Source of the DNA: Minisyncoccota bacterium
Lineage (GTDB): Bacteria; Patescibacteriota; Minisyncoccia; Phycocordibacterales; UBA5272
Assembly (NCBI GenBank): GCA_031972295.1
Contig: DALYEZ010000001.1
Coordinates: 1 to 55,758 of the forward strand
DNA length: 55,758 nucleotides
Direction: 5' to 3'
Made by a program: the position numbers and the translations under genes
The notes under the pieces: generated by a model
The model's input: the letters and a program-made list of their open reading frames with translations, nothing else
Told to the model about the DNA's origin: nothing
Databases searched by the model: none
Part shown: piece after piece, positions 155-41,545 of the stretch
Layout of the letters: each line of letters opens with the position of its first letter
How positions within the stretch are numbered: the stretch's first letter is position 1

Positions 155-1447
155 ATGAAGAAAATAGGTATTGCGTTACTTGGCGTTCTTGTAGCGGGGG
201 CACTCTTTTTTGTGTTTACCTCAAAAACAGGACCAAATGGTCAGCCGATTGAAAATGGTCTTACTGACAAGGACTTGATTACCCTCTATTGGGAGTCAGG
301 AGACGTTTTTTTTACAAACAAGGGGGTACAAGAGGCAAGACTTAATAAAGATTCCTCAAGTGTCATTATTCAGACAGGCAGTCAGGTGCGGACAACTGAA
401 GGATCAGCATACGTGCTTTTCCCCGACAACTCGATGATGTCAATCGATAAAAATACTATCGTAACTATTGAGTACTCAAAAGAGAAAGTTTCTATTCTCC
501 AAACGCTCGGAAACACATACCACCGTGTAAAGACACTCGAATCAGGGCAACAATACGAAGTGCGTACCCCGGGAACGCTCGCTGCTGTGCGTGGTACAAA
601 GTTTGCTGTTTTCTTTGATAACAAAACCAAGAAATCGAATGTAAAAGTAACGGAGAGTAAAGTGAGTGTAAAAAAGCTCGACAGTACCAAACCACTCAAA
701 GATGCTCCTGTGGTGCTTGAAGAAGTTGTTGTTGAAGAAGGCTCACAAGTTGATGTTCCAGATACTTCTATTCAAATCACGCGACCACTTGCGCCAACTC
801 GTATGGGGGAGAAGGACAAACGAGATAGTGGCTGGATGGAGAAGAATGAAATTGTTGACGAAGCAACAGAGAAGCCAGAAAATCGCCGTGAATTTATTGA
901 AAAGATGATTGAGGAGGTGAAGAAACAAAAAGAGGGAATGAATGACAAAGAAAAGATGGATGCGCTCCGTGATCGAGTTAAAAAGTTTAAACAAGAAAAA
1001 GGAATACAAGATGATTCTGTTTCTGAAGAAGACAATTCTAAAGTTCTTGTGGCAAGAAAGACGACTGATGACGCGATTTTAAAACCTCTTCTTGTAGATA
1101 CTAAGCCAGCAGACGACACTCCTTCTTTGAGTGACGACGAAAACCTTCCACCACTTGATCCAAGTATGAGTGATAGTGATGATCCTTTTGTACTCGAGTT
1201 TGATAGACGTTATGAATATTGGTTCCCAATTTACTCAGACAAAGCGACATTATGCTCGCGGGTGAATCCGCTTACCCCAGAAATACTCAAGGCGCGCTTG
1301 ATTGCTTTTGAGACAACCTACAAAGGCACGGTGCCAAATAAAGACGGTATTCTTAATTTTCTTCGAGCATTAAAACTATTCTGTTCTTCAACAGATACAG
1401 ACAATCGAATTCTTGATGAAGGTTACACGGAGAATTACCCTTTCTAA
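155..1447 (+). CDS. Membrane-anchored FecR-domain protein
   Basis: N-terminal TM helix; FecR-like beta domain (TGSQVRT...LFPDNSMMSIDKNT...EVRTPGTLAAVRGTKFAV); charged helical C-terminal half. Confidence 0.8.
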   Translation: MKKIGIALLGVLVAGALFFVFTSKTGPNGQPIENGLTDKDLITLYWESGDVFFTNKGVQEARLNKDSSSVIIQTGSQVRTTEGSAYVLFPDNSMMSIDKNTIVTIEYSKEKVSILQTLGNTYHRVKTLESGQQYEVRTPGTLAAVRGTKFAVFFDNKTKKSNVKVTESKVSVKKLDSTKPLKDAPVVLEEVVVEEGSQVDVPDTSIQITRPLAPTRMGEKDKRDSGWMEKNEIVDEATEKPENRREFIEKMIEEVKKQKEGMNDKEKMDALRDRVKKFKQEKGIQDDSVSEEDNSKVLVARKTTDDAILKPLLVDTKPADDTPSLSDDENLPPLDPSMSDSDDPFVLEFDRRYEYWFPIYSDKATLCSRVNPLTPEILKARLIAFETTYKGTVPNKDGILNFLRALKLFCSSTDTDNRILDEGYTENYPF

Positions 1448-1457
1448 AGCATAGTCT

Positions 1458-3371: not shown

Positions 3372-3373
3372 AT

Positions 3374-4114
3374 ATGGCAGATTACAGTGAGTATGCCGTA
3401 GAGTGGCATGAGAATAGAAAGAACAAACGCAGTCATTCAAAAGAATATATAGAAAAGCCAGGAATCTATGAAGCTATTGGAGATGTGCGTGATCAGGATA
3501 TTCTAGTGCTTGGATGTGGCTCAGGGGTTGAGTGTGACGAGCTTGTGCAAAAAGGTGCTCGCAAAGTTCACGGCATAGACAGTGCAAGTGGACTCATTGA
3601 GATAGCACAAAAGGAATACGGAACATGTACTTTTTCTTGTGAGGATATTCGAACATTTAATGTACAAAAAGAAAGTTTTGATATTTGTATTGCAAGTTTG
3701 GTGATGCATTATGTTCCAGACTGGAAAGAAACATTTTCTCGGGTGTGGCAGTCTCTTCGTCCCGGGGGTGTGTTTGTAATGTCACTCAATCATCCTGTGA
3801 AGTTTGGTGCAGAGATTATTCGTGGGGCAGAGTATTCTGCTTTATTGGGTTATGAGAAAGGAAAGGAGGGGGTGAAAGTGTATGGCGACTATTTGAATAA
3901 AAGAAAAATAAAAGATGTGTGGCTCGGCGGACTTGAAGTAGAATTTTATCATCAATCTTTGTCAGATATTCTTAAAGAAGTTTTAGCTTCTCAATTTACT
4001 CTCGTGTCTGTATCTGAGCCAAAGCCAATTGCACGAGCTGAAAAAGAAGATCCGGAGTTTTACCAAATCCACTCTAAAATCCCTCAGTTTTTAGTGATTA
4101 AACTGCAAAAATAA
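3374..4114 (+). CDS. Class I SAM-dependent methyltransferase
   Basis: Motif I VLGCGSG, VHGID, ASLVMHY; start moved to the ATG just after the cyclase stop. Confidence 0.9.
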   Translation: MADYSEYAVEWHENRKNKRSHSKEYIEKPGIYEAIGDVRDQDILVLGCGSGVECDELVQKGARKVHGIDSASGLIEIAQKEYGTCTFSCEDIRTFNVQKESFDICIASLVMHYVPDWKETFSRVWQSLRPGGVFVMSLNHPVKFGAEIIRGAEYSALLGYEKGKEGVKVYGDYLNKRKIKDVWLGGLEVEFYHQSLSDILKEVLASQFTLVSVSEPKPIARAEKEDPEFYQIHSKIPQFLVIKLQK

Positions 4115-8537: not shown

Positions 8538-9848
8538 CTATAGCAAATCTTGTACGTATTTGGCTACGAGCGCATTAAATGCAAGTCCTCGATCTTGATA
8601 ATCTTTAAACATATCAAAACTTGGTGCGCCCGGAGAGAAAAGAATAGTTTCTCCAGTTTTTGTTTTTTGAATTGCCGCTCGGAACACGTCTTCAAAGTTT
8701 CCTGTAATAACAACGTGTGGAATGTTGTGGAGAGAAAAAAGTTTGGATATACGATCTCGTTCTTCTCCGTATACGATAACGTCTTTAATAAAGAGTGACT
8801 TCTCTATACTTGTAACGAAAGGTTCTAAGTGAAGACCTCTATCTACACCACCAATAAGGAGTGTTGTGGGTGCAATCATGCTTTCAATTGCGACGTCTGT
8901 GGCTGTAGGGTTCGTGGCAAAAGAATCATTTACAAATGTAATGCCATTATGTGTTGCGATCGTCTCGATATGAAAAGGAAGCCCTTTGAATGTTTTAATT
9001 GCTTGTACAATAGATTTTTTATCTACGAGTGCCCACGTTGCTGCAATAGCCGCACAAATATTTTGTTCATTGTGTTTGCCGGGGAGTAAAGCATCCTTTG
9101 CAGCACATATTTCCTCATTGTTGTATGTAAAGAAATCGTTTTCATTTACTTGCACCAACGCATTTGTTCCGTAGGGAATTTTGTTTTTTGCAATACTAAG
9201 CGCGCTAAGCTGTGTGCTTACCTCGTTGTCTTGAAACCATATTGCTGCGTCTTCTTCCTTTTGATATTTAAAAATATTTCCTTTGGATGCTTGATATTGC
9301 TGAATGTCTTTATGCCAGTCGAGATGATCTTCGGTAACTAAAAGACAGATTGCTATCTGTGGGCTTTTGTGAAGATCAAAAAGCTGGAAACTTGAAAGTT
9401 CGTAGACAACAATAGATTGCGGAGTGAGTTTTGGGAGAATAGAAAGTGAGGGTGTGCCAATGTTTCCTACAAGGTGGACGTCTTTGCCATCAGTTTTTAA
9501 AATTTCATAGATAAGAGTTGCTGTTGTTCCTTTTCCCTTAGTGCCCGTGATGCCAATAATGGGGCAGGGACATAATTCAAAAAACTCCTTCGTGACAGTT
9601 GTAACTTTACCTTGGACGATGTCTTCAATGTCCCAGAGTGGTACTCCGGGGGAGCGGACAATGAGATCAAGTGCTGGTGAATCTGCTAAAAGAAGGTCTT
9701 TCCAATTTGATCCGAGTCTTTTGGTACATGTTGTAGGAACTTCAAGTGATTCATTTTGGTCGTACACAGAAATCTCTGCGGCTTGATTACCCCAGTATTC
9801 GAGTGCCATTTTGCCTTCTCGTCCAAATCCAACAATTCCTATTCGCAT
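8538..9848 (-). CDS. murD: UDP-MurNAc-L-Ala:glutamate ligase (MurD, probably L-Glu-using MurD2 type)
   Basis: GFGREG N-terminus, RSPGVP, GITGTKGKGTT, ELSSFQL, DHLDWH, VNDSFATNP, SPGAPSFDMF; start overlaps the murL stop. Confidence 0.93.
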   Translation of the reverse strand: MRIGIVGFGREGKMALEYWGNQAAEISVYDQNESLEVPTTCTKRLGSNWKDLLLADSPALDLIVRSPGVPLWDIEDIVQGKVTTVTKEFFELCPCPIIGITGTKGKGTTATLIYEILKTDGKDVHLVGNIGTPSLSILPKLTPQSIVVYELSSFQLFDLHKSPQIAICLLVTEDHLDWHKDIQQYQASKGNIFKYQKEEDAAIWFQDNEVSTQLSALSIAKNKIPYGTNALVQVNENDFFTYNNEEICAAKDALLPGKHNEQNICAAIAATWALVDKKSIVQAIKTFKGLPFHIETIATHNGITFVNDSFATNPTATDVAIESMIAPTTLLIGGVDRGLHLEPFVTSIEKSLFIKDVIVYGEERDRISKLFSLHNIPHVVITGNFEDVFRAAIQKTKTGETILFSPGAPSFDMFKDYQDRGLAFNALVAKYVQDLL

Positions 9849-11158
9849 GTTTCTATAATAGCGCGTAACGGAGTATTTATCTCTTCAGGGATAAAGTTGG
9901 GGTGGTAATTGGTAAGGAAGCTATCCGCAAGTTTCGCTTCATTTTCTACAGTAATCCAGTCCTCAACCGAAAGACTTTTCCCAAGCAGTGAATTTTTAAA
10001 GTCATCACTTTGAATCGCGGCGCGACACATTTCAGCTCTTGTTGCTACGCAGTCGAAAGGTTTTACAGGTGAAAGCCCTAGAAGCTCTTTGAGAAGCGGT
10101 GTGAGGCTTTCATTTTGATGCAAATCACTTCCAAATATTTCCATTCTCTTTTCAAGAGGAAGTGAAACTGACAAAAGCATATTTGTACCAAGACATTTTG
10201 CACACACACCACACCATCTTTTTGCACCACTTTCTTCAATGGTGAAGTTTTTATTGCAGCTACTAAAAGCTGGGAATACGTGAGGGCACATTTTTGCAAA
10301 TAAGTTTGTCACTCGAAGTCCACCCAGTGGCCGTAGAATAGAAAAGTATGTAATTTCTTGAGAAATGGTTTGGCGTACAAAATCTTGAACCTTTTTTTCA
10401 AAGTCACTCGTTTTTGACCACTGATGGTTCACGGGTCTGCCGAGCCATTCTGTGTTGGACTCATCAGCACTTGTTTCGTTTGCTACAACGACATACTTAC
10501 TTTGCTCGTGCTCTGCAAGCACAACTCCTGTGAAAGCGTAGATAAGAGAAATAGGAACATGTCCAAGAAAAACATTTTCTTTGAGTGTCAGTAGTTGCGG
10601 GTCTGTTTTGCGGACGACTTCAAGAAGAGGAATATTAAGTGCTTGAGTATTTTCAATGAGCAACGGAATGGATCGAACTTTTGTAGCAAAACCTGTCACA
10701 GGAACATTTATTCTTTTGAGAAGTTCTACTGCAAGCGAAGAATCTTTACCGCCACCGATTCCAACAATAGCTTTTAGTTCGTAGGAAGATGTTGTCTCAT
10801 GTGGCGGTGTACTGACTGTTTCTTCGTAAGTTATTTGTATCTGGTCGACAACACTCCACTCGAGCTTGTTTTGGTACACAAGTTCAGAAAAGCCGTTTCT
10901 AAAAAGCCACTGCCAAAATTCTTTCTCACTATCATCAATTAACCACCCTATGTGTATCTCTGGTGCAAGGTGGAGTTTGAAATAACTAATAGACGTGGCA
11001 ATAGCAAGGGCTCGGAGCGCTTTAGAATCGGAAATCTCAAAAGGAAAGATATGTTCTTCTTGAAATGAAAAAGAAGTAGCTCCGTCGGTATAGGAATAGG
11101 TATAGATTGCTGTGTTTGCAACAACCTTCGGGAGGTGAATAGTGAAGATTTTATCCAT
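9839..11158 (-). CDS. murL: UDP-MurNAc-L-Ala-L-Glu epimerase MurL
   Basis: GIGGGKDS, GHVP, ANETSA, VNHQWSK, YFSILRPL, FSSCNKNF, RWCGVCAKC, KPFDCV match the MurL motif series in order; start set at MDKIF, 7 nt after TGG-CATAAT. Confidence 0.88.
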   Translation of the reverse strand: MDKIFTIHLPKVVANTAIYTYSYTDGATSFSFQEEHIFPFEISDSKALRALAIATSISYFKLHLAPEIHIGWLIDDSEKEFWQWLFRNGFSELVYQNKLEWSVVDQIQITYEETVSTPPHETTSSYELKAIVGIGGGKDSSLAVELLKRINVPVTGFATKVRSIPLLIENTQALNIPLLEVVRKTDPQLLTLKENVFLGHVPISLIYAFTGVVLAEHEQSKYVVVANETSADESNTEWLGRPVNHQWSKTSDFEKKVQDFVRQTISQEITYFSILRPLGGLRVTNLFAKMCPHVFPAFSSCNKNFTIEESGAKRWCGVCAKCLGTNMLLSVSLPLEKRMEIFGSDLHQNESLTPLLKELLGLSPVKPFDCVATRAEMCRAAIQSDDFKNSLLGKSLSVEDWITVENEAKLADSFLTNYHPNFIPEEINTPLRAIIETCE

Positions 11159-11187
11159 TTCTTTCATTATGCCATGTGAACAAGAAA

Positions 11188-11215
11188 TTGACATTCTTAA
11201 TGTGGGGAGTAAATT
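11188..11215 (+). promoter_or_regulatory. Sigma70-type promoter (TTGACA-N16-TAAATT), divergent from murL
   Basis: Perfect -35 at 11188-11193, TAAATT at 11210-11215. Confidence 0.55.
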
Positions 11216-11255
11216 GAAAGGGTGACATTCCGTCACAAGCACTCGGGAGAGTGTC

Positions 11256-11375
11256 ATGGTCAACGAGATCAAGAAAACGGACTGGGTGGAAGGTGCCGTC
11301 ATCGCCGGAATCGCAGGGGTCGCCGGACGATGGGTCAAGCACAAGTGCGGTAGTTTGGTTCAGATGAAATTCTGA
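11256..11375 (+). CDS. Candidate 39-aa small protein MVNEIKKTDWVEGAVIAGIAGVAGRWVKHKCGSLVQMKF (or ORF within a structured RNA)
   Basis: SD-like GGGAGAG upstream of ATG, 27 of 38 post-start codons end in G/C with purine-rich first positions, upstream promoter and downstream terminator; below the ORF-track cutoff. Confidence 0.55.
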   Translation: MVNEIKKTDWVEGAVIAGIAGVAGRWVKHKCGSLVQMKF

Positions 11376-18875: not shown

Positions 18876-20207
18876 ATGCGGGCACCTTTCCTTATTTCTC
18901 TAGGAATAGCTTTCGGTGTTGTTGGAATCTTTTTGTTCCAGCAGTTTTTTAATATACGTACTATTGCACAAAACGTTGAAGAATATATTCCAAATACCTT
19001 ACGACAAAAAATAGTTCCAAGTGAGACGTCTAAAAACTTCCTGGAAGAAAAAATTACTGGCTTACAAAATAGTGGACAGATGTTTATTTTGGCAGATCTA
19101 ACCTCGATGCAACTTGATGTGTATAAAGATAATGTTTCTTTGCTTTCGGTTCCTATTAAAGCAAAAGGGCGAGAAGGCTCGTGGTGGGAAACTCCAGCTG
19201 GTTTGTATAGTGTTAAAACAAAAGAAAAGAATCACTTTTCTTCAATAGGTGAGGTGTATATGCCGTGGAGTATGCAGTTTCAGGGAAACTTTTTTGTTCA
19301 CGGCATTCCATATTACCCAGGTGGTAAGGAAGTTAGTACTAATTATTCTGGTGGATGTATTCGACTCGAAACTGATGATGCAAAAAAAGTATTTGATTTA
19401 ATTGAACGTGGAGCGCCTCTTGTCGTATATGAAAACGCGACAAGTACTTTGAATTCAGAAAAGTCGTACACTTTTGGACCAAGTACACTCACTGCAGAAA
19501 ATTTCCTTGTTGCTGATCTTGCTGATGGTTTTACTTTTGCTTCGCATGGTCCAGATACTGATATTCCCGCATCTGTTGCGAGTAACTTACTTGTAGGAAT
19601 TGTTGCTGCAGAGTATATGGACATAGAGCGTAAAATTACCATAGACCCCTCTGATTTAGTGACCACTGTAAGACCAAGATTAGCAGCAGGAAAAAAATAT
19701 GCTGTGCACGATTACCTGTACCTTCTCCTGCAAGAATCATCGCAGGAGGCATCTCACGTGCTTGCTCGAGCACTTGGTACCTCACGAACGGTTGATGTCA
19801 TCACCGCGAAAGCTGAAGCGATTGGTATGGAAAAAACAAAATTTACACAAGCTTCCATGTTTCAGTCAGAAAACAGGACGACACCATCAGATTTGTACCA
19901 ACTTCTTCGTTACATGTATTTTAATAGAAAGTTTCTACTTACTATAAGCGCAGATACAGCTGAGACACGTATTTATGGTGCGCCAGCTTTTTCAGATATT
20001 GAAAACCTATCTTTGTTTAAAGGAGATCCGCAATTTGTTGGGGGAGTGGTGGGGGATTCTGTAAACGGACACACAGGACTTTTTGTCTTTGAAATTCCGT
20101 TTGGCGAAACAGTTCGACCGGTAGGGATTATTCTTGATGGTTCAAAAAATGTAGAAGCTGATGTACAGGCAATACGGTCTTTTGTGGCGACAAGTTTTAG
20201 AAAATAA
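18876..20207 (+). CDS. L,D-transpeptidase (YkuD) fused to degenerate peptidase S11 domain
   Basis: TM, ETPAGLY, FVHG...SGGCIRL LDT catalytic motif; C-terminal S11-like fold with altered motifs. Confidence 0.85.
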   Translation: MRAPFLISLGIAFGVVGIFLFQQFFNIRTIAQNVEEYIPNTLRQKIVPSETSKNFLEEKITGLQNSGQMFILADLTSMQLDVYKDNVSLLSVPIKAKGREGSWWETPAGLYSVKTKEKNHFSSIGEVYMPWSMQFQGNFFVHGIPYYPGGKEVSTNYSGGCIRLETDDAKKVFDLIERGAPLVVYENATSTLNSEKSYTFGPSTLTAENFLVADLADGFTFASHGPDTDIPASVASNLLVGIVAAEYMDIERKITIDPSDLVTTVRPRLAAGKKYAVHDYLYLLLQESSQEASHVLARALGTSRTVDVITAKAEAIGMEKTKFTQASMFQSENRTTPSDLYQLLRYMYFNRKFLLTISADTAETRIYGAPAFSDIENLSLFKGDPQFVGGVVGDSVNGHTGLFVFEIPFGETVRPVGIILDGSKNVEADVQAIRSFVATSFRK

Positions 20208-21050: not shown

Positions 21051-22025
21051 ATGGTGCAAAAAATTCTCTTAGCAATGGTTACTATCTCAGTCACAAGTAT
21101 TGGGATTGTAGGTGCTGCGTCTTTGTATAGTGAAAATTACACGAGTATTCAGAAGGAGTTTATTTTTGCAGAGAATATTCCAGATGCTACCAAAACTTTT
21201 CCACCAGTGTCTTTTCCAGAAATTACTGTTCAGGCTGTTGGGTTGTATGTTGGTACGGTTGACCTGACTTCAGGCACAGTGACACCTCTTTATACTAAAA
21301 ACGAATATCAAAAACTTCCCATCGCAAGTATTTCAAAACTAATGACGACGTATGTTGCCACACGAAATAGGCGCCTAACAGACACGTTCACTATTACTGA
21401 TTGGGCAATTTCTGGTCCGTGGCCATCAAATAAGTTTACCGTCGGAGATGTCTTTTCTTTAAAAGAACTTCTTGAAGCAGCTCTTGTTGAGTCAAACAAC
21501 GATGCCGCTCGGGTCCTTGCTTCAACAATAGGAGAGCGAGCATTTGTTCAAAATATGAATATGGCAGCAGTAGCCTTTTCTCTTCCAGATACAAAATTAT
21601 ACTCAGCGGATGGTACTGAACGAATTCTTTCTGATACGTGGGTTGAAAATACATCCACGCCAAATGACATCGCTCATCTTATTGTAAGTTTATATAAAAC
21701 ATCACCAGAGCTTTTAAAAGTTACCACCATGCCTGAGGTGCTTATTTCCGATGTCACGGGTATGCATACGTTTACTGCTTACTCGACAAATAAACTTATA
21801 GATCGTTTTTCTGAAGGACTCACACTTTTAGGTGCCAAAACAGGAACTTCTGATAATGAGCGCAAGCATTTCGTAGTACTTTTTAAAGATGGTAGAGGTG
21901 ATGCCTTTGTCGCGGTCGTTTTACAGTCAAAGGATAACTTTGCTGATATGACGACAATACTTGATGCGGTGACCAAGTATCAAAATGACTTGTATGCTCA
22001 AAATCAAAAAAGTATTGTAAGATAG
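21051..22025 (+). CDS. D-alanyl-D-alanine carboxypeptidase (peptidase S11)
   Basis: Intact SxxK (ASISKLMT), SxN (SNN), KTG (AKTG); AGGAGG SD upstream. Confidence 0.92.
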   Translation: MVQKILLAMVTISVTSIGIVGAASLYSENYTSIQKEFIFAENIPDATKTFPPVSFPEITVQAVGLYVGTVDLTSGTVTPLYTKNEYQKLPIASISKLMTTYVATRNRRLTDTFTITDWAISGPWPSNKFTVGDVFSLKELLEAALVESNNDAARVLASTIGERAFVQNMNMAAVAFSLPDTKLYSADGTERILSDTWVENTSTPNDIAHLIVSLYKTSPELLKVTTMPEVLISDVTGMHTFTAYSTNKLIDRFSEGLTLLGAKTGTSDNERKHFVVLFKDGRGDAFVAVVLQSKDNFADMTTILDAVTKYQNDLYAQNQKSIVR

Positions 22026-22029
22026 ATAT

Positions 22030-22851
22030 ATGCTCGACGTACTTAAAAAAATAGCTCTTCTTGCAATAGGATTTCTTGTTATTGCACTGTTTGCATGGCT
22101 CGTTTTCCCTTCATCTCAAAAAGCTGCTGACAGTATTGCTGAAAACAATGTTACTAAAAAAAGAACACTCGGGGAAATTATCGTGCGTGATTTCTTAGGT
22201 ATTCCTAAGTGCGGTCTTTTGGGTGGTGGCTGTAGCGATCGGTTTTCAGATGGGCAAGCAACCTCTACTTCAAACGCACGTTTCTCAAATAAAGACATTC
22301 GACTTGTTGAGCCAACATCAGGGAGTAGTGTGAGAAGTGGTTTGCAAATAGAAGGCCTGGCTCGAGGAACGTGGTTTTCTCAAGGTATAGCTTCTGGAGA
22401 GGTTCGGAATGAGCGAGAAGAGAAGATAGGTGCGTTTACTATTCGTGCTAACGGGGCAACAAACTCAACTGCGTTCGTGTCTTTTTTAGGAACTATTACC
22501 TATGGTGATCCTGCGACAAAAACTGGCTATCTTGTTTTTAACAAAGCAAATCCTACGGGAGATGCGAAAAAAAATAGTGTTTTGTGGGTGCCTGTACGTT
22601 TTGAGGAAACGAGTTCTGGTTCTGGAATCCTTACTCCTCCTGGACAGAGAGAGTGTAAAAAAACAGGATGTAGCGGACAGATTTGTTCTGATGTAGATGT
22701 TATGACAACGTGTGAATATCGAGCTGAATACACCTGTTTCCAGGCAGCTCGTTGTGAACGACAAATAAGCGGGGAGTGTGGTTTTACACAAACTACAGAG
22801 TTGCAGTCTTGTCTTTCTTCTGCACGAAATAATTCTAGTAGTGGTATTTAA
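22030..22851 (+). CDS. Membrane-anchored Gmad2 Ig-like protein with C-terminal eight-cysteine-cluster domain
   Basis: TM; I.LVEP..GSSV.S.L.I.G.ARGTWF...NPTG Ig-like domain; CKKTGCSGQIC..TTCE..C..C..C..C cluster. Confidence 0.75.
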   Translation: MLDVLKKIALLAIGFLVIALFAWLVFPSSQKAADSIAENNVTKKRTLGEIIVRDFLGIPKCGLLGGGCSDRFSDGQATSTSNARFSNKDIRLVEPTSGSSVRSGLQIEGLARGTWFSQGIASGEVRNEREEKIGAFTIRANGATNSTAFVSFLGTITYGDPATKTGYLVFNKANPTGDAKKNSVLWVPVRFEETSSGSGILTPPGQRECKKTGCSGQICSDVDVMTTCEYRAEYTCFQAARCERQISGECGFTQTTELQSCLSSARNNSSSGI

Positions 22852-27859: not shown

Positions 27860-30800
27860 ATGGCACGCGTTCAAAAAACCGCAACAAAAACGGTAACTAA
27901 AAAGGCATCGAGTATTCCTGCTACATATGATCCTAAAAAAATAGAACCCATTCTTCAAAAAAAATGGGAAAAAGAAAAACCATTTAAAGCGCTTGCAAGT
28001 GGTAAGACAAAAAAGAAACCTTTTTATGTGCTATCAATGATTCCGTATCCATCAGGAATAGGACTCCATATAGGTCATCCGCGAAGCTACACTGCAACAG
28101 ACATTGTGGCACGTAAAAAAAGAATGGAAGGATTTAATGTCTTAAATCCAATGGGCTACGATGCATTCGGACTGCCTGCCGAGCAATTTGCAATACAGAA
28201 CCAAGTGCACCCCAAGAAAGCTGTCGCAATAAATGTTAAAACTTTTGAAGGACAGCTCAAAAGACTAGGATTTTCTTTCGATTGGGATAGAAAAATAAAC
28301 ACAACAGACCCTGGGTATTACAAATGGACGCAATGGATATTCTTGAAGCTTTACAATTCGTATTACGATACAAATAAAAAGAAAGCACTTTCTATTGATG
28401 AGCTTGTAAAGATTTTTGAGAAAAAAGGAAATCAAAGTATTAATGCTTTTATATCTGATCAAGTTTCTAACTTTACTAAAGATGATTGGAAGAAAATGTC
28501 TCCGTTGCAAAAGCAAGAGGTATTAATGAAGTACCGTCTTGCGTATGAGGGCGTTGCTCAAGTCAATTGGTGTGAAGCACTTGGGACTGTGCTTGCTAAC
28601 GATGAGGTTGTTGATAGTAAAGAGGGGCCTGTATCAGAGCGTGGCGGGTACCCAGTAACAAAGAAGAATGTTCGGCAGTGGTTTTTGCGAATCACTGCGT
28701 ATGCTGACCGACTTTTGTCTGGCTTAGATACGATTGCTTGGCCAAACCACATAAAGGAAATAGAAAAAAATTGGATTGGGAAAAGTGAGGGGGCTGAAAT
28801 ACTATTTAATCTTAATGTACCAGGTCAAGCTGAGGGTAAACATTCAGTAACTGTGTTTACTACTCGACCGGACACACTTTTGGGCGTAACATTTCTTGCG
28901 GTTTCAGCGGAGCTTGCACAAACGTGGCTTAATGTTGGCTGGCAGACAACTGGAGATGTTAAGGAGTATATAGAAAATGTTATTAAGGATCATGAAAAGA
29001 GTGATTTTGATGCATCGAAAGAAAAAACAGGAATTTTTACCCAGATATTTGCCACACATCCCGGAACACAAGAGAAGATTCCTGTTTGGATTGCGAATTA
29101 TGTTCTTCCTGGATATGGTACAGGCGCAATAATGGGAGTGCCAGCACACGATGAACGAGATTATGAATTTGCTCAAACGTATAATCTTCCTATCAAGAAT
29201 GTTATCGACCCAATTTTTGTTCGTGCTGACGTAAAAGATGCTACAAACTTTACTCCAAAAAATAAAATTGTCGCTCTTGTTGAAGCTCCTGACGGCAAGG
29301 TATTAACCATAAACTGGGGCTCAGCACTTGGTGGGCGGCTTCTTGTTGGTGGGACAATCGAAAATGGTGAACAGCCAGGTGAGACAGCATTACGTGAACT
29401 ACAAGAAGAAACAGGTTATTGTAATGGACAGGTTATTTCTGTTGGTGAAGAAATATTTGATTACAAATACTTTGCAACTTCTAAAAATACAGCACACCAA
29501 GCCTTTACTCGTTTCGTACATATAAAACTTAAAGATCTTGAAAATAAAGGTGATGCGCTTGAAGATAATGAGAAAGGTAAATTCAAAGTTGAGTGGATAC
29601 CGAAAGAGCAAGCCAAAAAAGAAATTGTTGAGGTGTTGCATGTATATGCTTTGGAGAAGTTTGGATATAATCTACCGTTTTCTGGCGAAGGTATTGTTGC
29701 TCGATCAGGCGTATTTTCTGGACTCACTTCCGTCCAGGCAAAAAAAGAAATTACAAAATCAGTTGGAGGTAAACTCGTCACTCGATACAAAATGCGTGAT
29801 GCTATTTTTGCTCGACAGCGCTACTGGGGTGAGCCGGTGCCACTCTTTAAAGACAAGGAAGGAATTATTCATGAAGTAAAAAAACTTCCTCTCGCGCTTC
29901 CAAATACAACCTCATATGAACCAACAGGAACCGGCGAAGGTCCGCTCGCAAATATTACCTCTTGGAAAAAAGCTGGCTATGAAACAAACACTATGCCAGG
30001 TTGGGCGGGATCAAGTTGGTATTATTTACGGTATATGGATGCACAAAACAAAAAAGTTTTTGCAGATCCAAAAGAAATAAAATATTGGAACCAAGTAAAT
30101 GTGTATCTAGGTGGAGCGGAGCACGCGACAGGCCACCTTTTGTATGCTCGTTTTTGGCACAAGGTTTTAAAGGATTATGGATTAGTGCCAACAGAAGAAC
30201 CTTTTAAGCAGTTTGTTGCGCATGGTTTGATTCTGGCCTCAGATGGACGAAAAATAAGTAAACGTTGGGGGAATGGAATAAGCCCGGATGAAGTTGTTGC
30301 AACATATGGGGCAGACACCACTCGTCTTTATATTGCCTTCATGGGTCCGTACACTGAATCTATTCCGTGGTCAGACGAAAGTATTATTGGTTGTCGGCGC
30401 TTCATTGAGCGTTTGTATAAGAAAGCCCAGTCTGCTCTAAATGAAAAAGTTTCAACGAGTGATGCTGTTGCCGAAAAAGCAATTCATAAACTTATCGATA
30501 AAGTAACAAAAGATATTGAAAGTTATAGCTTCAATACTGCTGTTGCTAAGGCTATGGAAACAATGAATATAATTGATAGTTGTAAAGTCTCAGTAAAAGA
30601 TTTTTCACTCATGCTTCAAGTGCTTAATCCATTTATTCCACATGTGACAGAATACTTATTCAAAGAGTGTGGCAACAAGGAGGGAATACACACAAGCTCT
30701 TGGCCAAAAGCGAACAAAAAGCTTCTTATTGACGATGAAATTACCATCGGCGTTCAAGTAAATGGAAAACTTCGAGGAACCATCACCGTACCCACTAATT

Positions 30801-30928
30801 CTCTCGAAAATGTAGTCAAAAAGGCTGCCCTAAATGAAGATAATGTGTTAAAATATTTGGAGGGAAAAGAGGTGATAAAGGTGGTTTATGTGCCAAATCG
30901 CATTATAAACATCGTTATTAAGCCATGA
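27860..30928 (+). CDS. leuS: Leucine--tRNA ligase with inserted Nudix hydrolase domain
   Basis: PYPSG.GLHIGH, CP1 FTTRPDT / GTGAIMGVPAHDERD, RQRYWG, GGAEHA, KISKR, QVNGKLR; Nudix box at 29351-29416. Confidence 0.96.
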   Translation: MARVQKTATKTVTKKASSIPATYDPKKIEPILQKKWEKEKPFKALASGKTKKKPFYVLSMIPYPSGIGLHIGHPRSYTATDIVARKKRMEGFNVLNPMGYDAFGLPAEQFAIQNQVHPKKAVAINVKTFEGQLKRLGFSFDWDRKINTTDPGYYKWTQWIFLKLYNSYYDTNKKKALSIDELVKIFEKKGNQSINAFISDQVSNFTKDDWKKMSPLQKQEVLMKYRLAYEGVAQVNWCEALGTVLANDEVVDSKEGPVSERGGYPVTKKNVRQWFLRITAYADRLLSGLDTIAWPNHIKEIEKNWIGKSEGAEILFNLNVPGQAEGKHSVTVFTTRPDTLLGVTFLAVSAELAQTWLNVGWQTTGDVKEYIENVIKDHEKSDFDASKEKTGIFTQIFATHPGTQEKIPVWIANYVLPGYGTGAIMGVPAHDERDYEFAQTYNLPIKNVIDPIFVRADVKDATNFTPKNKIVALVEAPDGKVLTINWGSALGGRLLVGGTIENGEQPGETALRELQEETGYCNGQVISVGEEIFDYKYFATSKNTAHQAFTRFVHIKLKDLENKGDALEDNEKGKFKVEWIPKEQAKKEIVEVLHVYALEKFGYNLPFSGEGIVARSGVFSGLTSVQAKKEITKSVGGKLVTRYKMRDAIFARQRYWGEPVPLFKDKEGIIHEVKKLPLALPNTTSYEPTGTGEGPLANITSWKKAGYETNTMPGWAGSSWYYLRYMDAQNKKVFADPKEIKYWNQVNVYLGGAEHATGHLLYARFWHKVLKDYGLVPTEEPFKQFVAHGLILASDGRKISKRWGNGISPDEVVATYGADTTRLYIAFMGPYTESIPWSDESIIGCRRFIERLYKKAQSALNEKVSTSDAVAEKAIHKLIDKVTKDIESYSFNTAVAKAMETMNIIDSCKVSVKDFSLMLQVLNPFIPHVTEYLFKECGNKEGIHTSSWPKANKKLLIDDEITIGVQVNGKLRGTITVPTNSLENVVKKAALNEDNVLKYLEGKEVIKVVYVPNRIINIVIKP

Positions 30929-32045: not shown

Positions 32046-33410
32046 ATGAATTACCTCGGGGCAATCATTACGCTATTATTTTTTATTGCACTTTCTGCAG
32101 GACTCGGCATACTCTGGTGGCGACACTGGGTACGACACGTGCAGGCTCAATTCCTAAACTCTATAAAATGGATTTTACTTGAAGTACGTTTACCTCGAGA
32201 TCTTTTTAAGTCACCTCTTGCTATGGAAATGTTTCTCACTTCTTTGCATCAAGGGGGTGGAACAAGTACATGGTATGCAAAATTTTGGGATGGAAAAGTT
32301 CGTAATTGGTTTTCATTAGAAATTGCTTCATTGGAAGGGGATGTGCGTTTCTTTATTCGTACCAATGGTAAGTTTAAAAATGCAATTGAGTCTGCGCTGT
32401 ATGCACAGTATCCAGGAATAGAAATAACAGAAACTGAAGACTACACAAACTATCTTCGTTACGATCCAAAAGAACACGATGTTTGGGGAAACGATTTTGC
32501 CCTAGTAGGTGAAGACGCTATTCCAATACGTACTTACGTAGACTATAAGCTCGACAAAGACCCTAAAGAAGAATTTAAAGTTGACCCAATAGCGCCCCTT
32601 ATTGAATGGATGGGTTCAGTGAAAAAAGGTGAGCAGATCTGGTTTCAGATTATTTGTCGTGCGGTTGATGGAAAGTTTGATACTTGGAAACTAGATGCAC
32701 AAAAAGCGCTGAACAAGATTTATTACGGACTTGAGCTTACAAATGATGAAGTAAAAGAAAAAATAAAAGAAGCGAAGGCTGAACTCGCAGAAGCTCGAAA
32801 AACAGATGATAAGGCTCGGGGGAATGTTCCAGAAGCAAAAAAAGATTCAGATCTCTCATATACAGATAAGCAAAAAGTTGAAGCGATTTATAACAATATT
32901 TCTAAACCTGGCTTCGAGGTGATGATTCGTGTTGCGTATATTGCAGATAAGAAACATTTTGATCCAAGAAATATTGATGCAGCAACAGGGTGTTTACGTC
33001 AATTTGGACATGGAAACTTCAATGGTTTTAGACCAGAAAATACAACGAGCTTCGATTTCCCTTGGGAAGATAGTACGGGAATTAAGTTAATTGGTAAAAA
33101 AGACGAAGCTGTCGCTAAAATTCAAAAACGAAAAGGCTTCTACAAGGCTCATAGCAATGAAGATTGGTATAACGGAATTCCGAGCGGTATACTTCATGAT
33201 GTTTGGGAGGCTTTTAAAATTCGGTTTTTCTCAGTTGATCCGATAAAGGCGTTTAAAAAACCATCTGTAAAAGATGACCCAACTCGTTTTATATTAAATA
33301 CGGAAGAGCTCGCAACGGTATACCATTTCCCTGGACAAGTCTCAGCTGCGCCGTCGCTCAAACGTATTGGATCTACAAAGGCAGAACCACCTATTAATTT
33401 ACCACTCTAA
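32046..33410 (+). CDS. Conserved hypothetical membrane-anchored protein
   Basis: N-terminal TM; WFSLEIAS, ESALYAQYPGIEI, FILNTEELATVYHFP; own TGn-TATAAT box. Confidence 0.75.
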   Translation: MNYLGAIITLLFFIALSAGLGILWWRHWVRHVQAQFLNSIKWILLEVRLPRDLFKSPLAMEMFLTSLHQGGGTSTWYAKFWDGKVRNWFSLEIASLEGDVRFFIRTNGKFKNAIESALYAQYPGIEITETEDYTNYLRYDPKEHDVWGNDFALVGEDAIPIRTYVDYKLDKDPKEEFKVDPIAPLIEWMGSVKKGEQIWFQIICRAVDGKFDTWKLDAQKALNKIYYGLELTNDEVKEKIKEAKAELAEARKTDDKARGNVPEAKKDSDLSYTDKQKVEAIYNNISKPGFEVMIRVAYIADKKHFDPRNIDAATGCLRQFGHGNFNGFRPENTTSFDFPWEDSTGIKLIGKKDEAVAKIQKRKGFYKAHSNEDWYNGIPSGILHDVWEAFKIRFFSVDPIKAFKKPSVKDDPTRFILNTEELATVYHFPGQVSAAPSLKRIGSTKAEPPINLPL

Positions 33411-36895: not shown

Positions 36896-36927
36896 TCACT
36901 GTTATACTCGAGACATAAGACTTGCGT

Positions 36928-38808
36928 ATGAAAACCAACGACGTACGAGCGTTATTTTTGAAGTTTATGGAGAAGAAAGGGCACGTGATTGTGGCTTCGT
37001 CTCCGCTCGTGCCAGAAAATGATCCCACAACTTTGTTTACAGGCTCTGGAATGCAGCCGATGGTACCATACCTTTTAGGGCAAAAGCATCCACTTGGAAC
37101 AAAGATTACTGATTCACAAAAATGTTTCCGCAGTCAGGATATAGAAGAGGTGGGTGACAATCGCCATACGACTTTTTTTGAAATGCTTGGAAACTGGTCG
37201 CTTGGTGATTTTTTTAAGCAAGAACAAATTCCGTGGATGTGGGAATTTTTGACAGAGGAAATTAAACTCGACCACGAACGTCTTTATTTTTCTTGTTTCA
37301 AGGGAAATGAGTCTCTTGGAATTCCAAAAGATACAGAGTCAGCAGAACTTTGGCAAAAACTTTTTAAAACAAAAGGGATTGATGCAAAAATAGGTGAGAA
37401 TCCAGAAGTTGACGGTATACAAGCCGGTGAACGAATTTTTTATTATCCTGAAAAGAAAAATTGGTGGAGTAGATCGGGAGTACCAGGAAATATGCCTGTG
37501 GGTGAGCCAGGTGGACCAGATACTGAGATGTTTTACGATTTCTACCCAGATCTCGGACGAAGCTGTATTCCAAACACAGTCTGGAGTGGCGAATTTTGCC
37601 ACGTAAACTGCGATTGCGGACGTTTTGTGGAGATTGGTAACAATGTCTTCATGGAGTACGTTAAAACAGAAAATGGCTTTGAAAAACTCGCACAGCAAAA
37701 TGTAGACTTTGGCGGTGGACTTGAGCGCATGACTGCAGCAACACAAAATGATGCTGATGTGTTTAATATGGATGTGTTTGATGTTGCAAAAGCAACCATT
37801 GAGCGATTGTCAGGAAAGAAATATGTAGGTGAGGCACAATATGCATTTCGAGTGATTCTTGACCACATTCGAGCCGCAACATTTTTAATAAGTGACGAAG
37901 TACTTCCGGGAAACAAGGATCAAAGTTATTTTGTGCGCCGACTTATTCGGCGGGCGGTGCGTTTTGCCCGCAATCTTGATATTCATACAAACTTTTGTGC
38001 GGAAGTTTCTGACTCATTTATTCAGGTGTATAAAGCTGAGTATACAAATCTTGAAACAAAGAGAGATAATATTTTGAGTGAGATCACAAAAGAAGAAGAA
38101 AAATTTAGAAAGACACTTGAAAATGGAATTAAAGAGTTTGAAAAAATAAAAGAAATAAACATTTCAGGAGAACAAGCCTTTGATCTTTTACAGTCATTTG
38201 GTTTTCCAATTGAACTAACTGAAGAATTAGCAAAAGAAAGAGCTCTGACCGTTGATCGAGCTGAATTCGACAAACTTAAAGATGCTCATGCCGAAAGTTC
38301 GCGCACCGCATCAGCGGGAAAGTTCAAAGGTGGACTAGGGGGAGATGGGGAAATGGAAGTAAAATATCACACTGCAACACACCTACTTCATCAAGCGCTC
38401 CGCGAAGTGCTCGGCGAGCATGTGTTCCAAAAAGGTTCAAACATAACTCCGGAACGTCTCCGTTTTGACTTCTCACACGACACAAAAATGACCGACGAGG
38501 AGAAAAAGAAAGTTGAAGACCTTATTAATTCAAAAATTGTTGCAGATTTGCCAGTCACTCGCGAAGAAGTTTCATTTGAAGAAGCAAAAGCTCGTGGGGC
38601 AATTGGACTTTTTGAAGATAAATATAGTGATGTGGTGAGTATTTATCGTATTGGAGAAGGTAAAAAAAGGGGGGATAGTAATCTCTACTCTATTGAATTC
38701 TGTGGTGGCCCACACGTTGAACATTTAGGACTACTTGGAACATTCAAAATTCAAAAAGAAGAAGCGGTGAGTGCGGGTGTGCGACGTATCAAGGCAGTTT
38801 TACAGTAG
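36928..38808 (+). CDS. alaS: Alanine--tRNA ligase (no C-Ala domain)
   Basis: DPTTLFTGSGM, HTTFFEMLGNWS, DFGGGLER, editing HTATHLLH and CGGPH; ends at GVRRIKAVLQ. Confidence 0.97.
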   Translation: MKTNDVRALFLKFMEKKGHVIVASSPLVPENDPTTLFTGSGMQPMVPYLLGQKHPLGTKITDSQKCFRSQDIEEVGDNRHTTFFEMLGNWSLGDFFKQEQIPWMWEFLTEEIKLDHERLYFSCFKGNESLGIPKDTESAELWQKLFKTKGIDAKIGENPEVDGIQAGERIFYYPEKKNWWSRSGVPGNMPVGEPGGPDTEMFYDFYPDLGRSCIPNTVWSGEFCHVNCDCGRFVEIGNNVFMEYVKTENGFEKLAQQNVDFGGGLERMTAATQNDADVFNMDVFDVAKATIERLSGKKYVGEAQYAFRVILDHIRAATFLISDEVLPGNKDQSYFVRRLIRRAVRFARNLDIHTNFCAEVSDSFIQVYKAEYTNLETKRDNILSEITKEEEKFRKTLENGIKEFEKIKEINISGEQAFDLLQSFGFPIELTEELAKERALTVDRAEFDKLKDAHAESSRTASAGKFKGGLGGDGEMEVKYHTATHLLHQALREVLGEHVFQKGSNITPERLRFDFSHDTKMTDEEKKKVEDLINSKIVADLPVTREEVSFEEAKARGAIGLFEDKYSDVVSIYRIGEGKKRGDSNLYSIEFCGGPHVEHLGLLGTFKIQKEEAVSAGVRRIKAVLQ

Positions 38809-38861
38809 CTTATTCTCGCTAAAAAGTTTTGTAATTCTGTTTGTAGGGTATACTTATCTAC

Positions 38862-39857
38862 ATGAAGGGTCGTGCGCCGCTTTTAAAAGAAAGTTACTCT
38901 CTTGTGCTTGATATCTATCTTGGTGGTGTTAGTGGTGCAATAGTGAGGAATGGTGTTATTGAACATCTGTCTCATAATAAAGCGCCCATTACTTTAGAAA
39001 ATGAACCGCAGAAGCTGCTTGCGCAAACGGAGATACTTCTTTTCAGAACTCTTGACGAGCTTGCCTCTAAAAAGAAAATTGTACAAACGTGCATTTTTAT
39101 CGATGCGCCCTTATCGTATTCTGAAACACATGAAGTTTTGTTTCAGAATGAAGACGCAACGTTTTTTGAACAAAATACAAAAGAGATAGAGGGTACACTT
39201 GATTTACCGAGCATATATACTGAACTTCTTGGGCCACATACTTCTGATGGGATTATTCTTGAACATTCACCACAAAATCACACCCTAAATGGTTATTCTA
39301 GTTCAAATCTTTCTCTATCAGGCGAAAGAAAGGCTGATATTGTTCAACAGTGGATACAAAGAAATGTATATACTGCGCTTCAAAAAGCAAAACAGTCCTA
39401 CATTCTAGGTAAAGACATCTTTTTACCAAATCTTATTGTAGGGAAAACTAATACTGATGTTTTGATGCTGGGTGAAATAGTGAGTGTGTATTATCACAAG
39501 AACATGAGTGCTGTTTTAAATACAGGTACGGGAATTGTAATATCAAAATGTGCACAAACACAGAGTCAATCTTTTTTACAAGTAGAAAGCATGCTCAAAA
39601 GTATTGAACGTACTCATGGAACAAAGAATGCTTTATACAAAGAAGTTGTAAAAGATTTTTCACACGCGTTCTCACATAGTTTTACAAAAGATATCCAGTC
39701 AAATAATGTCCCTTGTCCAACAGTATATGTAGGAGATTCTTTTATGCTTCCCGTTGTGGAAGATGCTTTGGCATCAGAAAAAAACATAGATTTTGTGGAA
39801 ATATACAAAGGTGGAGACGCACGTCTCACATATATTATTAAAAGTAAGGTACAATAA
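38862..39857 (+). CDS. Hypothetical protein, possibly degenerate FtsA/PilM-like actin fold
   Basis: LVLDIYLGGV resembles phosphate-1; LNTGTGIVISKCA...FLQVESML resembles the FtsA/PilM subdomain; weak. Confidence 0.5.
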   Translation: MKGRAPLLKESYSLVLDIYLGGVSGAIVRNGVIEHLSHNKAPITLENEPQKLLAQTEILLFRTLDELASKKKIVQTCIFIDAPLSYSETHEVLFQNEDATFFEQNTKEIEGTLDLPSIYTELLGPHTSDGIILEHSPQNHTLNGYSSSNLSLSGERKADIVQQWIQRNVYTALQKAKQSYILGKDIFLPNLIVGKTNTDVLMLGEIVSVYYHKNMSAVLNTGTGIVISKCAQTQSQSFLQVESMLKSIERTHGTKNALYKEVVKDFSHAFSHSFTKDIQSNNVPCPTVYVGDSFMLPVVEDALASEKNIDFVEIYKGGDARLTYIIKSKVQ

Positions 39858-39870
39858 TTACAAATATTGT

Positions 39871-41109
39871 ATGCAAGACATCGTTCCTAAAAAAAGCATT
39901 CGAGAAATTACTAAACCACATGTACCAGGAAGTGTGGCGCCACGAAACACATACCAGAAAGTTCCTGATGTGGTTACGGTTGCTAAAGATAGCGCAACTC
40001 AGTTTGATGAATATCCGCACACAAAAACTGAATTTTATACGAAAGAAAAGAAACGTGGATGGATACTTCCGGTATTTATTGTTGCGGTACTCATTTCTGT
40101 TGGTGGATTTCTTCATTTTCAAAAAAGCGCTACGGTATACGTAACCAGTAAGCAAGAAATTTTCACATTTAAGGATACTGATATTGTGATACCTACTAGT
40201 AGCTTAGAGATACTATCAATAAGTACATCAACTACTATTGATATAAAAACAAGTACTGGAACACCAGCCCTTATGAAAGCAAAAGGTACAGTGACCCTCT
40301 ACAACTCAAATTCTACCGAGCAACTCCTTGTTGCTGGCACACGACTTGAGACTCCAAATGGAAAAATATACCGTCTCGATGGACGCATTACTGTACCTAA
40401 GATGATAAATAGCAGTACCCCAGGATCAATTCAAGCTCTTGTAACAGCAGATAAGCCAGGTGAAAGCTATAATGTGTCCCAAGCAGACTTTACGCTTCCT
40501 GGGCTTGTCGGGACTGCTCGTTATAAAACAGTCTATGCTCGAACCAAGGGTGCAATTGCAGGTGGCTCAGAAACAGCAGTGCGTTTGATAGATGAAAAAG
40601 ATAAAAATCAAAAAATGGAAACATTTTTAACAGAAAACAGAGTGTCTCTTGAGGCAAAACTTCGCCTTCAAAAGAAAGCTTCTACAACTATCATTCAAGA
40701 ACCACTCACAACGAGTAGTTTTGAAAAGATTTCGGATACACAAGGACTCGTTACCCTTACTACTTCAATGCATCTTTTGGATACCAAAGAATTTGCCACC
40801 CTCCTCACAAAAAACCAAAAACAAAACACAGTTATCACAATGGATTTTGCCCAGGATTCAACAGGTATGATTGTTACATACGTATCGGAAGATAAAGAAG
40901 GAGTTCGTGTGAAAGTAAGCGGTGTAGCTTCGGTGCGCCCATATGTGAATATGGAAGATATCAAAAACGCTCTTGCAGGTACTTCAATGAAGCAGTTTCG
41001 AGAACACATTAAAGATGTACAAGGAATACAGGAGATACGATTTACTTCAAGACCTTTCTGGGTGAGCACATTTCCTTCAGCTTCTCGTATTTTTGTAGAA
41101 CAAAAATAA
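39871..41109 (+). CDS. Membrane-anchored baseplate J/gp47-like domain protein
   Basis: Disordered N-terminus, single TM, then AKGTVTLYN..LVAGTRLET.NG.IYRL..VTADKPGESYN..FTLPG..IAGG. Confidence 0.7.
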   Translation: MQDIVPKKSIREITKPHVPGSVAPRNTYQKVPDVVTVAKDSATQFDEYPHTKTEFYTKEKKRGWILPVFIVAVLISVGGFLHFQKSATVYVTSKQEIFTFKDTDIVIPTSSLEILSISTSTTIDIKTSTGTPALMKAKGTVTLYNSNSTEQLLVAGTRLETPNGKIYRLDGRITVPKMINSSTPGSIQALVTADKPGESYNVSQADFTLPGLVGTARYKTVYARTKGAIAGGSETAVRLIDEKDKNQKMETFLTENRVSLEAKLRLQKKASTTIIQEPLTTSSFEKISDTQGLVTLTTSMHLLDTKEFATLLTKNQKQNTVITMDFAQDSTGMIVTYVSEDKEGVRVKVSGVASVRPYVNMEDIKNALAGTSMKQFREHIKDVQGIQEIRFTSRPFWVSTFPSASRIFVEQK

Positions 41110-41156: not shown

Positions 41157-41366
41157 ATGCCAGATGCTGAACCGGTCCAAGGACAAGTAATAGAAGCGCT
41201 CCCGAGCACGCTTTTCAAAGTGAAATTAAAAGATACCGACACTGAGGTTCTTTCGTATTTAGGGGGTAAAATGCGTATCCATAAAATACGAATTCTAGTA
41301 GGGGATAAGGTGGCTGTACTACTTGATCCATATGGTGGTAAAGCGAGAATAGTGAAGCGTCTCTAG
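41157..41366 (+). CDS. infA: Translation initiation factor IF-1
   Basis: GQVIEALPS..FKV, GKMRIHKIRILVGDKV. Confidence 0.95.
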   Translation: MPDAEPVQGQVIEALPSTLFKVKLKDTDTEVLSYLGGKMRIHKIRILVGDKVAVLLDPYGGKARIVKRL

Positions 41367-41422: not shown

Positions 41423-41545
41423 ATGAAAATCAAATCAACAATCAAGGCAAAAGACTTGCGTAATGGAGAATTTCTTGTTCGCCGAAACGGGAAACTTTTC
41501 CGTATTAACAAGAAAGACCCAGCTCGCAAGGCTCGACAAGGGTAA
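41423..41545 (+). CDS. rpmJ: 50S ribosomal protein bL36 (Cys-free form)
   Basis: [40 protein letters not shown] between infA and rpsM; missed by the ORF track. Confidence 0.92.

Follow-up and report, generated by a model that had tools for sequence, protein, structure and literature searches.

We analysed a stretch of 55,758 nucleotides (nt) from a Minisyncoccota bacterium (GenBank assembly GCA_031972295.1, contig DALYEZ010000001.1, positions 1–55,758 of the forward strand), referred to as the window throughout, and focused on two adjacent open reading frames, ORF1 and ORF2, that lie between alaS and infA and together look like a putative, hitherto undescribed connection of the cell interior with the envelope. 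ORF1 (38862–39857, + strand) encodes a protein of 331 amino acids (aa). An intergenic gap of 13 nt (39858–39870, +), in which inspection of the sequence reveals no obvious Shine-Dalgarno element, separates it from ORF2 (39871–41109, +, counted from its ATG), which encodes a protein of 412 aa with the predicted topology of a bitopic membrane protein whose N-terminus resides in the cytoplasm. The mechanically called reading frame of ORF2 opens at TTG 39793; the biological start is ATG 39871, where the N-terminus common to all close homologues (MQDIVP) begins. The unit is flanked upstream by alaS (36922–38808), assigned by a tRNA-synt_2c match in syntenic loci, and downstream by infA (41157–41366). 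Coordinates and neighbours confirm the two-gene unit with a 13-nt gap that a preliminary description of the locus had delineated.

Conservation and probable promoter of the pair

An ORF2-family gene is located directly 3′ of the ORF1-family gene in 74/76 testable loci. These comprise the window plus nine loci to which one or the other gene led (10/10) as well as 66 metagenome loci (64/66), the latter derived from a scan seeded with ORF1-family motifs that yielded 79 loci, 66 of them with enough downstream sequence. In the 64 metagenome pairs, the downstream gene matches the ORF2 family with E values of 1e-29 to 1e-113 and is mostly followed by infA; a search with the ORF2 clade alignment returned three GTDB loci. 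In the window and the nine loci, the pair is followed by infA-(rpmJ)-rpsM-rpsK-rpsD-rpoA-rplQ; in the syntenic order, alaS precedes the pair. The preliminary description depended on the two genes being conserved together, and this is borne out, yet ORF2 relatives without ORF1 occur at the same site. In a database of 5.8 billion proteins, homologues of the 331-aa form of ORF1 are rare (16 clusters), and ORF2 is represented by 43 clusters. Relatives with named source records trace to Paceibacteria/Parcubacteria (Patescibacteria, candidate phyla radiation, CPR). ORF1 and ORF2 are real genes under selection. Both proteins are shorter in the clade that contains the window than elsewhere in the family, with 331 versus ~385 aa for ORF1 and 412–421 versus 450–498 aa for ORF2.

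A −10 box (TATACT, 38849–38854, +) is located 7 nt before the ATG of ORF1 and represents the probable promoter of a leaderless ORF1–ORF2 transcript. Considered in the window alone, this box, which the preliminary description had already assigned to the unit, is not above chance (12 promoter-like sites versus 12.6 expected), but its conservation supports the assignment: a −10-like hexamer ends 5–9 nt before the ORF1-family ATG in 72/77 loci, with a mode of 6–7 nt. The conserved hexamer is mostly TGn-extended, commonly as TGnTATAAT. Since the spacing between the −10 box and the ATG is this short across loci, the mRNA is probably leaderless. In the window, infA is preceded by a promoter-like sequence of its own (TTGTGA-16-TATACT) that ends 10 nt before the infA ATG.

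Fold and nucleotide motifs of ORF1

Single-sequence scans of the window proteins gave no Pfam, NCBIfam or PHROGs match for ORF1 and nothing meaningful in the same three collections for ORF2. A profile search of 1.8 billion representatives led from the ORF1 clade to a 386-aa protein (P0066) that is homologous to the gene preceding ORF2 relatives in distant loci, and a further profile search led to 128 clusters of a ~385-aa family, some of which carry the JGI label 'cell division ATPase FtsA'. The profile of the ORF1 clade is not significant against single distant upstream proteins; the link was made transitively via P0066 and then by profile search. The profile of the ORF1 family in turn retrieved only weak hints of Alp12 and PilM from the PDB sequences.

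We modelled ORF1 with AlphaFold2 from an alignment of 121 sequences and obtained a model with a predicted local distance difference test score (pLDDT) of 91 and a predicted template modelling score (pTM) of 0.90. In a Foldseek search of the PDB, the best 29 matches of this model consist entirely of FtsA and PilM structures (E 1.6e-11 to 1.2e-7; template modelling score, TM-score, 0.46–0.60), with the PilM structures between 1.5e-10 and 1.2e-7. The top matches include complexes of PilM with PilN (2ych, 5eou) and of FtsA with FtsN (7q6i). They are followed by sugar kinases and the cytoplasmic domain of GspL/EpsL; MreB and ParM-type actins do not lead. ORF1 is a predicted cytoplasmic protein whose model shows an actin fold of the FtsA/PilM class, in agreement with the actin fold that had been proposed for it. 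Residues 85–166 (39114–39359, +) form an inserted alpha/beta subdomain that, judged from the order of secondary structure elements in the model, occupies the position of subdomain 1C in FtsA and PilM; by this position in the fold it would correspond to 1C. The chain stops inside the last core helix (residues 320–330 of 331), and the amphipathic C-terminal membrane helix that follows a linker in FtsA is absent from the model. Therefore, ORF1 would need a partner to reach the membrane.

Conservation is unevenly distributed over the ORF1 fold. Within the window clade, 96 positions are conserved to at least 85%, and 65 of these fall in residues 1–166 (1A + 1C), whereas domains 2A + 2B account for 16/122. 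Residues identical in both ORF1 subfamilies include P83, E134, G144 and Y145, at or in the subdomain at the 1C position, and the most conserved block of the whole family (E134, G144, Y145) falls in residues 85–166. The constrained surface of ORF1 thus appears to be domain 1, which is also where PilN docks on PilM and FtsN on FtsA.

The ATP-binding motifs were compared by an alignment that was anchored on E. coli FtsA VVDIGGGTMDIA and in which the motif columns were tabulated. Alignments of the family by hhalign to E. coli FtsA (probability 2.8%) and HofM (0.07%) are not significant and served solely to line up the motifs. The canonical motifs (DxG..., DxGGGTxD and GGG) are absent from ORF1, which carries DIYLGG, LMLGEIVS and VGDS at the aligned phosphate-1, phosphate-2 and adenosine positions. 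Read from the aligned sequences, the motifs decay in three steps: (i) a deep-branching relative encoded upstream of ORF2 in locus L092, with LDIGTAS, DIGGEVT and TGGGS; (ii) the ~385-aa family, with DVQSS, HxHGELTD and ISAE; and (iii) the window clade, with DIYLGG, [FL]xLG[DE]xVS and VGDS. The designation of the ORF1 gene as degenerate in the preliminary description holds at all three aligned sites. With the phosphate-1, phosphate-2 and adenosine motifs lost, ORF1 has presumably lost nucleotide binding and is probably a nucleotide-independent scaffold.

The L092 relative (2530–3744; hhalign probability versus the family 98.6%) is a 404-aa ORF1-family member whose gene overlaps that of its ORF2 partner by 4 nt, and it may reflect how the family looked ancestrally, when it probably bound ATP. 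In the ~385-aa family, HxHGELTD is nearly invariant at the columns of ORF1 residues 201–208 (H in 103/105, H in 104/105 and D in 105/105 sequences; alignments A4 and A6) and could form a novel site for a metal or another ligand instead of reflecting simple decay. It is gone from the window clade.

Predicted topology, N-terminal motif and ectodomain of ORF2

The AlphaFold2 model of ORF2 (pLDDT 83.8) comprises a disordered N-terminal region (residues 1–57, with pLDDT <50 at residues 14–17 and 19–57), a single transmembrane (TM) helix and an ectodomain of mainly beta structure that includes one long helix (residues 242–267). The TM helix spans residues 65–83 (40063–40119, +; Kyte-Doolittle mean 2.39), with a net charge of +3 in the 15 residues that precede it and +1 after it. 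The 41 ORF2-family members compared contain one hydrophobic segment each, and nearly all carry more positive charge before than after it. Model and charge pattern fit a predicted single-pass topology with the N-terminus inside, and thereby agree with the disordered cytoplasmic tail, single TM helix and ectodomain described earlier.

The first 16 residues of ORF2, MQDIVPKKSIREITKP (39871–39918, +), constitute a near-invariant short linear motif on the predicted cytoplasmic side. In the window-clade alignment A5, 14/16 of these residues are invariant, against a mean column identity of 64%. Across the family, the first 20 residues of 40/41 members contain the motif [VI]xDI[VI]P (core [VI]xDIxP), which is usually followed by (K/R)SIR(E/D)I. 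The motif is reminiscent of E. coli HofN, whose PilN-type N-terminus reads INFLPWRQQRR, and its pattern at the extreme N-terminus is similar to that of PilN, hydrophobic-(N/D)-hydrophobic-hydrophobic-P-x-(K/R). Residues 17–64 (39919–40062, +) form a disordered, poorly conserved, basic cytoplasmic linker, and in the family the linker after the motif varies in sequence and in length (25–100 aa).

In the ectodomain, residues ~135–215 (40273–40515, +) form a beta-barrel that is homologous to domain 2 of GlxA and to the barrels of baseplate-J proteins such as Mu gp47. The hhalign comparison of ORF2 with Mu gp47 covers 64 columns (residues 135–206) at 30% identity and an E value of 2.5e-5, and the ORF2-family profile retrieves GlxA at 4.6e-4 and Mu gp47 at 0.019 from the PDB sequences. 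PF21110, the Pfam family of the GlxA barrel, is matched at E <0.01 by 25/35 ORF2 relatives (best 5.8e-7) but not by the window protein on its own. PF04865 (Baseplate_J) is matched at E <0.01 by 5/35 relatives, the best of which remains below the gathering threshold (19.9 versus 21.1 bits); the window ORF2 shows no match at E values up to 10. The PHROGs family phrog_6, 'baseplate wedge subunit', is matched by 15/35 relatives. Foldseek against the PDB places GlxA first (3.7e-8), followed by the baseplates of Mu, A-1(L), phi812, Pa193, XM1 and Milano. Several solved baseplates and many J-like proteins in BFVD are matched with a Foldseek probability of 1.0, and the named BFVD matches are mostly 'Baseplate J-like'. 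PilN/PilO-type structures are absent from the Foldseek matches of the ectodomain.

The extent of this homology is limited. Over ~340 Foldseek columns, ORF2 and wedge proteins superimpose with a TM-score of about 0.2 and a root mean square deviation of 20–38 Å. Homology of the ectodomain is secure for the barrel only, and a wedge-like character of the ectodomain as a whole is suggestive at best. The J-like match of the preliminary description stands for residues ~135–206, where hhalign, Foldseek against PDB and BFVD, and phrog_6 concur, and is weak for a complete wedge domain. Residues 242–412 (40594–41106, +) consist of the long helix, followed by an alpha/beta region and a conserved C-terminal PFW..FP motif in which P395 and W397 are invariant; no sequence match to this C-terminal region was found in the PDB.

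GlxA from Streptomyces lividans (domain 2, PF21110; 4unm, 5lqi) provides the closest sequence relative of the ORF2 barrel. Anchored by a TM segment, it works outside the cell together with the glycan synthase CslA in the deposition of an envelope glycan; no function has been reported for its barrel domain 2 (PMC11022532). GlxA shares with ORF2 the N-in orientation, the TM anchor and the extracytoplasmic location, and it is a cellular precedent for this barrel in a TM-anchored extracytoplasmic envelope protein. The two proteins differ in that GlxA, a copper radical oxidase, has a beta-propeller, into which the barrel is inserted and which is missing in ORF2, and in that GlxA has no actin-fold partner. 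Because the closest sequence relative of the ORF2 barrel is this cellular domain and not a phage protein, domestication of a phage baseplate fold, as put forward in the preliminary description, is unproven.

Genomic setting and possible role of the pair

Downstream of infA, the window continues with rpmJ (41423–41545, 40 aa), rpsM, rpsK, rpsD, rpoA, rplQ, rplM, rpsI, grpE, dnaK and dnaJ. Pfam scans of 30 further window ORFs identified, among others, leuS, YceG, mnmA, uvrA/B, a Mur ligase, DD-peptidases, scpA/B, mraY and ftsW, and all genes identified in this way belong to a housekeeping or envelope class. Neither these 30 ORFs nor the syntenic loci contain a Pfam match to sheath, tube, gp25-like, gp7-like or other baseplate genes, in line with the earlier statement that no phage, sheath or tube genes lie nearby. 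The GC content of the ORF1–ORF2 region (0.37–0.39) is the same as in the rest of the window.

Several other features of the window were recorded. The rpmJ (L36) homologue, whose short length kept it off the list of ORFs, lacks the Cys/His zinc-ribbon residues that are present in its orthologue in locus L002. The leucyl-tRNA synthetase (27860–30928) carries a NUDIX domain (residues 471–587, E 5.5e-12) inserted past the editing domain. A 443-aa protein (18876–20207) combines a YkuD L,D-transpeptidase domain with a beta-lactamase/DD-carboxypeptidase-like domain, and a separate DD-carboxypeptidase is encoded at 21051–22025. At 155–3371, the gene for a FecR-domain protein precedes one that joins a CHASE2 sensor to an adenylate/guanylate cyclase domain, a signalling pair that is unexpected for a reduced genome. 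Pfam returned no match at E <0.001 for three sizeable ORFs of 501, 273 and 454 aa at 9839–11344 (−), 22030–22851 (+) and 32046–33410 (+), respectively.

We propose that ORF1 and ORF2 form a tether of the PilM–PilN or FtsA–FtsN type within a vertically inherited Paceibacteria housekeeping operon, a reading to which we give about an even chance of being correct. An extended −10 promoter belonging to the operon would give rise to a leaderless mRNA, and ORF1 would act as a cytoplasmic, nucleotide-independent actin-fold scaffold. The N-terminal motif of ORF2, carried on its flexible linker, would dock onto domain 1 of ORF1 (the 1A/1C side) and so hold ORF1 at the membrane, coupling it to an extracytoplasmic domain built on a baseplate-J/GlxA-type barrel. 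By analogy, such docking of the tail to ORF1 is the most likely interaction: the cytoplasmic N-terminus of PilN binds a groove on PilM (PMC5285504), and in the FtsA–FtsN complex (7q6i) the bitopic partner likewise docks on FtsA with its cytoplasmic N-terminal peptide. We favour the tether because ORF1 lacks an anchor, because its conservation concentrates in domain 1, because the ORF2 motif is constrained and placed on a flexible tether, and because the two genes point in the same direction behind one probable promoter. The role of the pair is likely to be a constitutive envelope process, e.g., division or wall/glycan growth; its housekeeping locus and near-universality favour such an envelope or division role.

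Several observations weigh against the tether. The ORF2 motif is also loosely similar to the C-terminal peptide of FtsZ (LDIPAFLRK), which binds subdomain 2B of FtsA and not 1A/1C, and the linker between motif and TM helix (~50–100 aa) is much longer than in PilN. In L041 (1947–4813) and L043 (3489–6744), an ORF1-family gene is found between alaS and uvrB with no ORF2 downstream; in these related metagenome loci the pair is split by rearrangement. Conversely, in L091 (5001–6401) and L093 (2046–3245) a divergent ORF2 relative alone separates alaS from infA, an ORF1-family gene being absent beside it, and these relatives retain only the [IV]xDIxP core of the N-terminal motif. The existence of ORF1-less and ORF2-less loci implies that the partnership is not obligatory in cis, and the ORF2 motif may bind something other than ORF1. 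Gene context, finally, provides no functional clue beyond 'housekeeping'. Since L091 and L093 carry ORF2 without ORF1, ORF2 at this site appears more widespread than the pairing and is possibly older.

Four further explanations were weighed. ORF1 could be the lineage's own, extremely diverged FtsA, with ORF2 as a divisome partner analogous to FtsN, FtsQ or DivIB and the pair as a core divisome module, which we regard as unlikely. FtsA structures (such as 4a2a and 7q6i) lead the Foldseek list of ORF1 (best E 1.6e-11) with the highest TM-scores (up to 0.60) and share the insertion at the 1C position; the JGI names, the resemblance of the ORF2 motif to the FtsZ peptide and a pair that appears single-copy and near-universal point in the same direction. 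The sequence models of FtsA, however, capture the family only weakly: TIGR01174 (ftsA) matches 5/38 of the ~385-aa members with a best E value of 4.1e-6 at ~15–16 bits, far below its cut-off of 175.85, and PF14450 gives 12–16 bits on ORF1 relatives against a threshold of 31.8. ORF1 further departs from FtsA in its missing C-terminal amphipathic helix, its degenerate nucleotide site and its 2B subdomain, which is the FtsZ-binding site of FtsA and the least conserved part of ORF1. Neither the window, nor the 8 kb past its end, nor ~0.69 Mb of related loci contain an ftsZ or ftsQ near the pair, and a search for ftsA in the related loci, which bears on these loci and not on whole genomes, found none. 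Rather unlikely, in our estimate, is a CPR-specific trans-envelope scaffold in which a nucleotide-free pseudo-actin of FtsA ancestry assembles beneath the membrane and is connected via the ORF2 tail with an array of baseplate-wedge-like ectodomains on the cell surface, replacing in Paceibacteria a divisome or host-contact function whose canonical components are missing; here, the cytoplasmic motif of ORF2 may mimic an FtsZ or PilN docking peptide. That ORF1 and ORF2 are unrelated neighbours kept by frozen synteny in a dense housekeeping region would explain the loci in which either occurs without the other, and the flanking genes are all strongly syntenic too. We nonetheless judge it quite unlikely, given adjacency in all but two testable loci with short gaps or overlaps, a promoter before ORF1 only, the shortening of both proteins in the window clade and their complementary architectures, one without an anchor and the other with a conserved cytoplasmic motif. 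Very unlikely is a PilM–PilN-like alignment subcomplex of a type IV pilus or a related fibre machine. It draws on the PilM and PilM–PilN structures among the top matches of ORF1, on a gene for an actin-fold protein without a membrane helix directly upstream of the gene for its N-in bitopic partner, and on the conserved, HofN/PilN-like N-terminus of that partner. ORF1 nevertheless has no match to Pfam PilM (PF11104) and has lost the ATP motifs; no pil genes (ATPases, platform, pilins, pilO/P/Q) are adjacent in ~90 loci, the neighbourhood consists of translation genes, and the ORF2 ectodomain is a J/GlxA-type barrel rather than a PilN/PilO structure.

The idea that ORF2 was left behind by a prophage tail or by the baseplate of a contractile injection system is exceedingly improbable, even though Foldseek, PHROGs and Pfam all indicate baseplate wedge or J proteins (the type of Mu gp47 and T4 gp6). 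Homology to these is confined to the barrel, and ORF2 differs from them in its membrane anchor, its cytoplasmic tail, its site in the core genome and the lack of partner wedge, sheath or tube genes among the window ORFs scanned. Composition is host-like, and the same position is occupied in >70 diverged lineages; synteny and gene content effectively refute this prophage or injection-system reading of ORF2. A relationship to MreB–MreC, suggested by the order of an actin-fold gene and a gene for a bitopic protein with a beta-barrel, was likewise rejected, as neither protein is among the Foldseek matches and the insertion in ORF1 is of the FtsA/PilM type.

Most of the abundant Paceibacteria have never been cultured, and hardly anything is known about their cell biology. 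A full-text literature search returned no paper that describes the ORF1–ORF2 pair or baseplate-J-like proteins in CPR bacteria. The logic of an actin-fold protein combined with a bitopic partner is known; the family, the decayed nucleotide site and the ectodomain with a J/GlxA-type barrel set this pair apart. Within the ORF1 family, the change of an actin-fold ATPase into a probable pseudo-enzyme can be followed in natural gradations, and with ORF2 a barrel that is best known from phage baseplates is placed in a second cellular setting next to that of GlxA. This near-universal, single-locus pair is a concrete candidate for the coupling of cytoplasm and envelope in reduced cells, be it in division, wall growth or host contact.

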